In this document: in pieces, positions 8,551 through 10,396 of the stretch | How positions within the stretch are numbered: position 1 is the stretch's first letter | How the letters are laid out: each line of letters begins with the position of its first letter | Source of the DNA: a virus | Strand: one strand, 5' to 3' | Virus record (IMG/VR): IMGVR_UViG_3300028897_000772 | Length of the DNA: 17,975 nucleotides | The notes under the pieces: model-generated | The model's input: the letters and a program-made list of their open reading frames with translations, nothing else | Told to the model about the DNA's origin: nothing | Database searches by the model: none | Position numbers and translations under genes: made by a program

Positions 8551-8981
8551 GATTTAAAAAATATCTGATAGAAAAATGGGAAAATACATTTAAGATAGGT
8601 CCAACAGCTATTGAGGTATTTGTAAATCCAACAAAAAGAGAATATAATGATATAGTAAAAGCCAGTAAAGAAAGTGGATGGAGCTATGCAGGGGCAACAA
8701 GAGCTTTTTATGATTCTAAAAAAGATAAGTTATGGGTATGGAGGGGAGATGTTCTTCATTCTTATATGAGTAACAAATTAAAAGTAAATGTTTTTACTCT
8801 TATAAGAATTGAGATAGATCCACATAGTAAAATCGTAAATGTTTTTGAACCTTATGGTGAGGAAGAAGTATTCGATAATGTAAAAAAGATTATAGAGAAA
8901 ATTAGAAACTTTGCACCACAGATGAAAGGATATAAGGTTTTTCATCATCTTGGTCATGCTGAGTATGAGTTTAAAATATGA
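8547..8981 (+). CDS. Paralog family member C (leader MRFKKYLIE; core motifs NPTKREYNDIVKASK and WVWRGDVLH)
   Basis: 144 aa. ATGA overlaps at both ends. Confidence 0.7.
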   Translation: MRFKKYLIEKWENTFKIGPTAIEVFVNPTKREYNDIVKASKESGWSYAGATRAFYDSKKDKLWVWRGDVLHSYMSNKLKVNVFTLIRIEIDPHSKIVNVFEPYGEEEVFDNVKKIIEKIRNFAPQMKGYKVFHHLGHAEYEFKI

Positions 8982-10396
8982 AATTTACAACATTCCTTAT
9001 AAATGAAGCAGCAGAAGCATTGAGAGATTGGAACAAGTATGTGAAAAGGAATAGAATGCTTGCAAATGCAGTAGTGGTGCTTAAGAAAATAATATCTAAA
9101 GGTTATAAGGCTTATATAGTTGGTGGAGCAGTACGTGATATTGTCCTTGGTAATGATCCTAAAGATGTAGACATTGCAACCAATATGCCCATAGATGAAC
9201 TTGCAAAAATTTGGAAAGTTGCCGATATTGGTAAATCAAAAGACTTTGGAATTGTCGTAATTAAAGAAGGTGGTATTGTATTTGAAGTTGCACAATTCAG
9301 AACAGATGGTAAATATATTGATGGGAGAAGACCAGAATCTATTCAAATTGCTGGCTCTTTTAAAGAAGATGTATCAAGAAGAGATTTTACTATCAATGCA
9401 ATGGGGATTGATATTGATGGTAATATAATAGATTATTTTGATGGAAGAAAAGATATCAAAGATAAAGTTCTGAGAACTGTTGGTGATCCAATGAAAAGAT
9501 TCTCAGAAGATAAGTTACGAATCATGAGGGCAGCACGTTTTGCTTCTAAACATGGTTTAGATATAGATCCTGCTACACAAAAAGCTGCAAAGAAATTGGC
9601 ACAAGACATTACTAAGCTTCCCATGGAAAGAATCAAAGATGAAATTTTTAAAGCAGCAAAAATGGAGGGTAGCAGGTTTGCAGTTTACCTACAGATACTT
9701 GATCAATTTAAAGTATTGAAATACATCCTACCAGAGTTAGTAACTCTTAAGTGGCTTAAACATGCTCCTGGACACCATCCAGAATCTTCAACTGTCTGGG
9801 GTCACGTCATGGCAGCACTTAAAGCTACTAACACAACAGATCCTATAAAGAATCTTGCTATACTTCTCCACGATGTTGGAAAATCAATTACTGGAGGAAT
9901 GAAAGCAGGAACACCTACTTATTATGGTCATGCTGAAGCAGGTGTTAATTTAGTTGATGCCATAGCTGATAGATTGAAGATGTCTAATAAAGAAAGACAG
10001 GCTCTTCTTTTTGCAGTTGGAAATCACATGAAGTTTCACGACCTCTTCAAGATGAAACCGTCCAAGATTGCCAAGCTTGTTAATGATGAGAATTGGGATG
10101 TTCTTGTTGCAGTTGGACAAGCTGATGCATGGGCAAGAGGACCGGAGTTTAAGCACTATAAGAAATGGGAAGAGATGATTCAACATGCCATAGATATTAA
10201 GAATAAGTGGGGTATCAATCAAGTCAGCAGAGTTAATTCTATTGTTGATGGTAATCAGATTATGAAACTGACAGGTCTCAGACCAGGACCAAAAATTGGA
10301 GAAATCAAGAACAAGGTTTTGGAGTGGGTAGTTGATAATGATATTACTGATCAACAGGAAATAGAAAATAAGATCAAAGAATTAGCTTCTTCCTAG
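8978..10396 (+). CDS. cca: tRNA nucleotidyltransferase (class II CCA-adding enzyme) with an HD domain and a leader-type N-terminal extension
   Basis: The polymerase-beta head motif GYKAYIVGGAVRDIVLG...PKDVDIAT is present. An RxxRF-type segment follows, and the C-terminal HD motif reads LLHDVGKS. The first ~25 aa (MKFTTFLINEAAEAL...) precede the usual start of CCA enzymes. Confidence 0.85.
   Translation: MKFTTFLINEAAEALRDWNKYVKRNRMLANAVVVLKKIISKGYKAYIVGGAVRDIVLGNDPKDVDIATNMPIDELAKIWKVADIGKSKDFGIVVIKEGGIVFEVAQFRTDGKYIDGRRPESIQIAGSFKEDVSRRDFTINAMGIDIDGNIIDYFDGRKDIKDKVLRTVGDPMKRFSEDKLRIMRAARFASKHGLDIDPATQKAAKKLAQDITKLPMERIKDEIFKAAKMEGSRFAVYLQILDQFKVLKYILPELVTLKWLKHAPGHHPESSTVWGHVMAALKATNTTDPIKNLAILLHDVGKSITGGMKAGTPTYYGHAEAGVNLVDAIADRLKMSNKERQALLFAVGNHMKFHDLFKMKPSKIAKLVNDENWDVLVAVGQADAWARGPEFKHYKKWEEMIQHAIDIKNKWGINQVSRVNSIVDGNQIMKLTGLRPGPKIGEIKNKVLEWVVDNDITDQQEIENKIKELASS

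Follow-up and report, generated by a model that had tools for sequence, protein, structure and literature searches.

The window analysed here is the whole 17,975-nucleotide stretch of the virus record IMGVR_UViG_3300028897_000772 from IMG/VR, and our subject is one gene on its plus strand that codes for a CCA-adding enzyme and opens with a short peptide leader, also carried by neighbouring genes, which closely resembles the signal that loads proteins into the head of phage T4. A preliminary description, made from the sequence alone, had proposed a complete class II CCA-adding enzyme with an HD domain at this place. The open reading frame (ORF) is present as described there, and the identity was confirmed by sequence, profile and fold. 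The gene and the parts of its product are the following (in peptides, a slash marks a predicted cut).

8978..10396, plus strand: CCA-adding enzyme gene, ATG start, 472 amino acids; its start codon and the stop codon of the leader ORF before it overlap (ATGA)
8978..9007, plus strand: leader MKFTTFLINE, residues 1-10, proposed capsid-targeting propeptide with a predicted prohead-protease cut after Glu10 (I-N-E/A)
9008..9061, plus strand: clade-specific N-terminal extension, residues 11-28, AAEALRDWNKYVKRNRML, with W18, Y21 and L28 invariant
9110..9475, plus strand: Pol-beta nucleotidyltransferase head, residues 45-166, with motif A (GGAVRD..DVD) and motif B (RRDFTINA)
9554..9739, plus strand: neck or RNA-binding domain, residues 193-254 (Pfam PolyA_pol_RNAbd), with motif D, EDKLRIMRAARF, just upstream at residues 177-188
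9803..10126, plus strand: HD phosphohydrolase core, residues 276-383 (H276, H298-D299, H318, H350, D383)
10196..10360, plus strand: C-terminal tail domain, residues 407-461, a weak tRNA_NucTran2_2 match

In Pfam, PolyA_pol (PF01743) matched residues 45-166 at 7e-32, PolyA_pol_RNAbd was found at 1e-10 and HD (PF01966) matched residues 293-368 at 1.9e-4, with 22.1 bits for a cut-off of 22. PHROG 2244, annotated as tRNA nucleotidyltransferase, covers residues 42-459 (1.8e-79), and the Bacillus CCA enzyme structure 1miv of the PDB was matched at 5e-45, motifs B and D aligning to it. The E. coli-type "multifunctional CCA addition/repair protein" model of NCBIfam spans residues 44-386, that is, the nucleotidyltransferase together with the HD domain. 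The top model of that collection, NF009814 (CCA tRNA nucleotidyltransferase), gave 252 bits for a cut-off of 290 and the remaining models were far under theirs; judged from these sequence scores, the product is a divergent member of the family and not a named equivalog. Its AlphaFold model (pLDDT 74.8 overall, below 50 for residues 1-15) has the head-neck-body-tail fold of class II CCA enzymes, and all 46 Foldseek matches to the PDB (E<=1e-3) were class II CCA-adding, CC-adding, A-adding or poly(A) polymerase structures.

The catalytic residues are preserved throughout the family. In an alignment of 25 relatives (about 58-82% identity) the metal-binding H276, H298, D299, H318, H350 and D383 of the HD domain are invariant, as are G49, G50, R53, D54, D63 and D65 of motif A (GGAVRD at residues 49-54 and DVD at 63-65) and the key residues of motif B (RRDFTINAM, 134-142) and motif D (EDKLRIMRAARF), the template within the protein that selects CTP and ATP, both motifs being intact. 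We are therefore confident that the enzyme belongs to the CCA family and that its HD domain looks functional. Such a domain is typical of the bacterial CCA enzymes that repair tRNA ends (PMC6961547), and that of E. coli Cca has 2',3'-cyclic phosphodiesterase and phosphatase activity according to Yakunin 2004, as cited in PMC6961547. By analogy, the HD domain of the phage enzyme would act in the same way on RNA ends. The alignments to PDB structures and profiles begin only around residues 29-45, indicating some 28 N-terminal residues in excess of the cellular enzymes. Beyond the leader, this excess is the extension of residues 11-28, which has no counterpart in cellular or other phage CCA enzymes (the PDB alignment opens at residues 29-31).

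The leader was already ascribed to this gene in the preliminary description and it is indeed there, as the ten-residue variant MKFTTFLINE, one residue longer than the nine-residue pattern M-[RK]-[FL]-x-x-[YF]-[LI]-x-E. Six further ORFs of the same plus-strand run bear the leader or a variant of it, which makes seven in the window. The strict pattern M[RK][FL]..[YF][LI].E was found four times, compared with 0.00-0.04 expected in a six-frame translation, and every occurrence coincides with the first Met of an ORF.

2315..2839, plus strand: leader ORF MRFFRYLTE, PHROG 16075, homolog of KVP40.0371
4609..5025, plus strand: leader-variant ORF MRFEKYLNSLNE, not found in the 92% identical relative L001
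5447..7243, plus strand: 598-residue ORF with the degenerate leader MKLLDKIDNLLQE; its orthologs in L010 and L016 start MNLNDYMRQE and MRFKDFMTE
7240..7668, plus strand: leader ORF MRFLKFLNE, paralog family
7669..8550, plus strand: leader ORF MKFQKYLTE, two tandem paralog units and an internal leader remnant, KYLTE
8547..8981, plus strand: leader ORF MRFKKYLIE, paralog family, immediate upstream neighbour of the CCA gene

Most of the tagged genes of the window belong to one paralog family without recognisable domains, and tblastn of this family against the phage database gave no match. The CCA gene had been considered the last of the operon. It is the last leader-bearing gene, but a leaderless plus-strand ORF of 217 amino acids (10465-11118) comes after a gap of 68 nt and precedes the convergent uvsW. 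As to the individual tagged proteins, the 598-residue one has a Cys-rich C-terminus, CCATSECITCPNACGF, and an unassigned function; its sole tblastn match in the phage database was to Moorella phage MTATph1 (27% identity over about half of the protein). The two tandem units of ORF 7669-8550 share the form FxNPxxxE(Y/F)xDA, the internal remnant (..SKVGKYLTEKW..) lies at about residues 157-167 and would be an internal cleavage site if the protease hypothesis developed below is right, and the ortholog in L001 has 509 amino acids.

The distribution of the leader was studied in 80 IMG/VR loci around CCA homologs plus the long contigs carrying two of those homologs, the closest relative of the window being L001. 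In a metagenomic protein database 116 of the 120 closest CCA homologs carry the leader, at 37-38 residues ahead of GGxVRD in all of them except one, while more distant phage CCA enzymes start 10-25 residues ahead of GGxVRD and have no leader. Loci with a leader-bearing CCA gene contain between 1 and 18 additional leader ORFs each (about 150 in total), nearly all with the leader at the first Met, and the strict motif marks 16 ORFs in L005. The control phage DNA amounted to about 1.9 Mb in total. In the outgroup CCA loci (about 40, some 650 kb) there were three loose matches, a single one of them at the first Met of its ORF. A gp23-profile scan of IMG/VR and GTDB genomes gave 159 loci, none of which is a leader-CCA contig; they served only as leader-negative controls and as a source of gp23 junctions, and the search for the leader around gp23 gave zero matches both in 80 other IMG/VR T4-like contigs (616 kb) and in 79 contigs of metagenome-assembled genomes (675 kb).

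With the leader removed, BLAST sorted the 118 non-redundant tagged proteins into 70 clusters, and the possibility that the leader is simply the N-terminus of one paralog family was rejected on this count. A Sec or lipoprotein signal was also rejected, the leader being short, charged and devoid of a hydrophobic core. Conservation is limited to the nine codons, identity being only 31-38% over the 30 nt that flank them, and the synonymous codons used for Phe, Tyr, Glu, Lys and Leu are close to those of the gene bodies, indicating that selection acts mainly on the leader peptide. Furthermore, in the same loci the leader was not found on replication proteins, endolysin or baseplate proteins. The leader is thus a real, portable tag that acts at the peptide level. 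The locus turns over even between close relatives, the rearrangement breakpoints between the window and L001 falling exactly at leader starts, in agreement with some homogenisation of the leader that also takes place at the level of DNA.

Packaging mediated by a capsid-targeting sequence (CTS) is textbook T4 biology. The CTS of the internal protein IPIII is MKTYQEFIAE (10.1101/2021.01.19.427310); its targeting function requires residues 4 and 7, and its processing requires residues 8 and 10 (PMC9026906). When fused to the CTS, beta-galactosidase, GFP or a nuclease is packaged in 20-200 copies and reaches the next cell (PMC9026906, PMC9958956, PMC3012670). The consensus of 136 leaders reads M1, R/K2, F/L3, x, x, Y/F6, L/I7, x, E9, so F/L3, Y/F6, L/I7 and E9 have the spacing of the T4 determinants (aromatic-x-x-aromatic-aliphatic-x-Glu), one residue nearer to the Met, and F/L3 and Y/F6 correspond to Y4 and F7 of T4. 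L/I7-x-E9 is present in 134 of the 136, with M7 in the other two. The CCA enzyme keeps F3 and F6 and ends in L-I-N-E, thus retaining an I-x-E site. We consider it probable that the leader serves both to target proteins to the prohead and to signal their cleavage. In KVP40 (L002, 231409-232967), KVP40.0371 (MSIIFE/R..) and its neighbour KVP40.0372 (MIEFLTE/M..), located between uvsW and inh/gp23, also start with short peptides ending in (I/L)-x-E, and KVP40-like vibriophages may have a shorter version of the targeting system. For the KVP40 homolog of ORF 2315, nothing usable on virion proteomics was found in the literature.

A leader-bearing contig, L038/L088, holds the head module, with the portal gp20, the gp21 protease, a gp22-like scaffold and gp23. 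Its scaffold is rich in [LIV]-x-E sites and its gp21 begins with MAKLITE/A. The propeptide of its gp23 is predicted to end at ..LENEQKYIVE/ASGATS, about 33 residues before the conserved PMVRR and at the position equivalent to the maturation site of KVP40 and also of T4. The gp23 of the three closest relatives found (L089-L091) read YINE/S, FLME/A and WLME/T at the same place, indicating, together with L088, that the capsid junction shares the aromatic-[LI]-x-E form with the second half of the leader.

The transcription unit that holds the leader genes could be delimited on its left side.

2130..2146, plus strand: terminator-like hairpin with T-run that closes the upstream gene
2192..2199, plus strand: T4 late-promoter consensus TATAAATA, located ahead of the leader operon in the one intergenic gap of appreciable size there

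This promoter-like element is followed by a tiny basic ORF and then by the first leader gene, an arrangement kept in L001. In relatives it lies 40-50 nt before gp21 and gp22; it was also found ahead of the L088 leader array, ahead of the L003 operon of gp5 and CCA and, in L005 (8655), in the gap ahead of an operon of a leader protein, RNA ligase and the CCA enzyme. A scan for sigma-70 promoters and terminators remained at background level, and of its output we relied on a single element, the terminator at 2130-2146. The leader run of the window includes lysis genes, which code for an M15 peptidase and for membrane proteins. Late expression of the leader operon is plausible. The tiny ORF (2230-2317, plus strand), 30 nt after the promoter consensus and with a good ribosome-binding site, codes for the 28-residue, extremely Lys/Arg-rich MAKVGKKAKGQGRRKQGKKKRKAMRKKGK; the peptide is identical in L001 (1687-1776) and could be either a packaged DNA-condensing peptide or a simple leader ORF. 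The apparent lysis cassette (2841-4612, plus strand) consists of an M15 peptidase/endolysin (2841-3368), two membrane ORFs (3365-3760 and 3699-4103) and, at 4088-4612, an ORF whose product combines a lipobox with a C-terminal transmembrane segment.

The nature of the other tagged proteins was examined by a Pfam census of 120 of them, with individual checks. RNA_ligase is one of the tagged families and lies directly upstream of the CCA gene in L005, apparently in the same operon. There are also P-loop kinases of the AAA_33, Zeta_toxin and KTI12 (Pnk-like) types, and three proteins with cREC_REC. HD_4, NT5C, DUF4406, Peptidase_C39, DnaJ and ART-PolyVal are represented as well. The ART-PolyVal protein (MKFNQYLIE...) is coded immediately upstream of the CCA gene of L001, at 9507-10001. 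The Alt protein of T4 is an ADP-ribosyltransferase that is packaged, processed by gp21 and injected with the DNA, and by analogy the tagged ART-PolyVal protein is its natural analogue. The cRec domains are predicted to process 2',3'-cyclic phosphates and are linked to RNA ligases (Iyer et al., PMC7824862). At the left edge of the L005 cargo array (L005 1-1295) a LAGLIDADG intein was found within a P-loop-kinase-like gene, and the UvsW homolog of the same contig (15974-18496, 840 amino acids) has a Hint/intein insertion.

The window is T4-like in its gene content, with UvsW (including UvsW_N), UvsY, a gp41/DnaB helicase, dUTPase and thymidylate kinase.

11054..12547, minus strand: UvsW-like helicase, marker of the T4-like context

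In relatives the CCA gene adjoins either gp5, gp25 and gp6 or UvsW, UvsY and gp41. Compared by megablast with 50,697 phage records, the whole window gave no match; CCA homologs were found in 507 phage records. A tRNA scan of 18 loci detected no tRNA genes within 10 kb, and the maturation of locally coded tRNAs is not supported as a role. In the outgroup L044 (about 9470-11164) the CCA frame extends without a stop over 177 residues ahead of the match and codes there for a P-loop kinase (GVPGSGKST), which may represent a kinase-CCA fusion; such a fusion would independently support a role of phage CCA enzymes in RNA-end repair. At the left end of the window, a protein of 666 amino acids (89-2089, plus strand) contains a major-vault-protein shoulder (3e-29), Vault_3, SPFH/Band_7 and a long coiled coil. 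It is not in L001. Vault- and SPFH-like proteins are unusual in a T4-like phage, and a search of IMG/VR for a leftward extension of the contig found no relative of it. A second Band_7 protein, with a lipoprotein signal, is coded at 16516-17403 (plus strand).

We propose that the window codes for an active class II CCA/HD enzyme with a T4-type capsid-targeting propeptide, packaged and injected for tRNA repair, a reading to which we give a probability of about 0.58. The CCA enzyme would be produced late in infection and docked by its leader to the scaffolding core of the prohead, where a gp21-type prohead protease would cut past the leader Glu (I-N-E/A). The mature enzyme, of about 53 kDa, would remain in the head and be ejected with the DNA into the next host; the close resemblance of the tag to the T4 head-loading signal suggests that it is probably injected ready-made. 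There, tRNA 3' ends cut by tRNA-directed immune nucleases would be rebuilt before any phage gene is expressed and, by analogy with E. coli Cca, a 2',3'-cyclic or 3' phosphate would be removed and the CCA tail restored. Immune nucleases that cleave tRNA tails do exist, for example Cas12a3 (PMC12851939). Packaging and injection are supported in so far as they agree with every comparative test that was run on these sequences, and the assignment of the role to immediate-early tRNA-end repair against host defence is more tentative, somewhat on the doubtful side. The enzyme would be one item of a variable set of leader-tagged cargo that in relatives includes RNA ligase, kinases, cRec, HD_4 and ADP-ribosyltransferase proteins.

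The tagged gene might instead code for an ordinary intracellular enzyme, engaged in the maturation or upkeep of phage and host tRNAs, and the leader would then serve a purpose unrelated to packaging. At the DNA or mRNA level it might be a box for cassette recombination or translation initiation; as a peptide, it might dock the protein to a phage chaperone, factory or regulator. The 507 phage records have CCA homologs without such a tag, and the literature assigns the phage enzymes to intracellular RNA repair (PMC7824862). The breakpoints at leader starts and a slight excess of ATA and CTA codons in the leaders would also fit, as would the metabolic appearance of many tagged proteins; however, the leader is conserved mainly at the amino-acid level, with synonymous codons like those of the gene bodies, and fits both the T4 targeting determinants and the capsid cleavage junctions. 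The replication, lysis and baseplate genes of the same loci are untagged, an Alt-like ADP-ribosyltransferase is tagged, the 18 loci have no tRNA genes nearby and the leader genes are placed among late genes. We regard the intracellular enzyme as unlikely on balance, although still reasonably probable because virion association is here something that we infer.

Clearly less probable is that the nucleotidyltransferase has another specificity, acting as an A-adding, CC-adding or poly(A) polymerase on RNA 3' ends, for example by marking host RNAs for decay. The PcnB profile TIGR01942 matches too (7e-53), the structures of E. coli poly(A) polymerase rank high and the CCA equivalog cut-off of NCBIfam was not reached, but the top profile and the top PDB matches are CCA-adding enzymes, motif D (EDxxR..RAxRF) is intact and the HD domain is of the type found in the bacterial tRNA-end-repairing enzymes (PMC6961547). 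The least probable alternative accepts prohead targeting and gives it another purpose than tRNA repair in the next host, the product being a bulk internal or scaffold-associated protein, or else a zymogen activated by the protease in the producing cell. The internal proteins IPII and IPIII of T4 are abundant and lack a clear enzymatic role (PMC9026906), and the domainless paralog family dominates the tagged genes of the window. Against this, neither domain shows any change in its catalytic residues among the family members, indicating selection on the enzymatic activity, and the grouping of the CCA gene with tagged genes for RNA ligase, kinases and cRec proteins points to RNA repair.

Several observations weigh against the packaged and injected repair enzyme itself. 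The main weak point is that the head module and its protease were seen only in L088, a more distant member of the clade, and not in the lineage of the window; furthermore, the CCA gene of L038/L088 is leaderless and looks disrupted. The association with the virion is deduced from sequences of a group with no cultured relative or proteome. The late-promoter consensus occurs three times in the window for 2.4 expected, which is not above chance, so that late expression is suggested only by the position of the element. The Pfam score of the HD domain is borderline and no NCBIfam equivalog cut-off is attained. The leader has the slight excess of ATA and CTA codons, and the breakpoints at its start show that a process at the level of DNA also maintains its sequence. 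Some tagged proteins look like ordinary intracellular metabolic enzymes (5'-nucleotidase, nucleoside-processing enzymes, kinases), and up to 16 tagged genes in a 20-kb stretch would represent more cargo types than T4 is known to carry.

At the level of the whole group, the chances are about even that an uncultured and widespread T4-like clade fills its heads, by means of one nine-residue capsid-targeting tag, with a fast-changing arsenal of enzymes, including a full tRNA-repair kit, an Alt-like ADP-ribosyltransferase and nucleotide-processing enzymes, so that counter-defence would start with DNA injection and cargo would be gained by recombination at the tag. The kit, no more certain than that, would comprise RNA ligase, Pnk-like kinases, a cRec processor of cyclic phosphates and the CCA-adding/HD enzyme. 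Phage CCA enzymes and capsid-targeting tags are each known, and their natural combination in a large tagged cargo set looks new; the papers searched that mention a capsid-targeting sequence do not describe this combination. If our proposal were true, tRNA repair would be another function delivered as ready-made protein, next to the inhibition of restriction (T4 IPI*) and the modification of RNA polymerase (T4 Alt), and a way of beating tRNA-cleaving immune systems that are quicker than phage gene expression. A simple tag would also mark the injected proteins of metagenomic T4-like phages and provide a list of candidate anti-defence proteins (more than 70 clusters here, most with an unassigned function), as well as an alternative natural targeting peptide for engineering cargo into T4-type capsids.

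Among cellular enzymes, E. coli Cca has the same succession of a class II nucleotidyltransferase head, a neck and an HD domain, the last with its H..HD..H..H..D signature complete. The identity with it is only about 25-30%, and the phage protein has in addition the 28-residue N-terminus (leader plus W/Y helix), a tail domain like those of Bacillus and actinobacteria and a score under the equivalog cut-off. The CCA enzymes of jumbo and other phages (Iyer et al. 2021) belong to the same family, are presumed to restore tRNA ends after host attack and are likewise associated with RNA ligases, kinases and cRec domains, but they start 10-25 residues before GGxVRD, are leaderless and are assumed to act once expressed in the infected cell. 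The ejection proteins of phiKZ and SPN3US and the Dar proteins of P1 are also large head-packaged sets that are processed by the prohead protease after Glu and delivered to the host, with anti-defence functions included. Those phages are of other lineages, the cleavage motif of phiKZ is S/A-x-E and no common short N-terminal tag is found in their proteins.

The closest parallel to the leader is in the T4 internal proteins, with an N-terminal propeptide of about ten residues, the aromatic-x-x-aromatic-aliphatic-x-Glu arrangement and the (L/I)-x-E cleavage motif at its end; here too the tag is common to otherwise unrelated proteins of a T4-like phage, coded at hypervariable loci. The leader described here is one residue shorter (9 residues, 10 on the CCA enzyme), and whereas in T4 the CTS sits on a few small basic proteins, the tagged set known from genes alone comprises at least 70 clusters, including sizeable enzymes. 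As for T4 Alt, its propeptide differs from the CTS of the internal proteins, and it modifies the host RNA polymerase while the phage CCA enzyme would act on tRNA 3' ends. The two would be alike in being enzymes carried in the head that act before phage gene expression, as proposed here and known for Alt, and a leader-tagged ART-PolyVal protein adjoins the CCA gene in the closest relative of the window.

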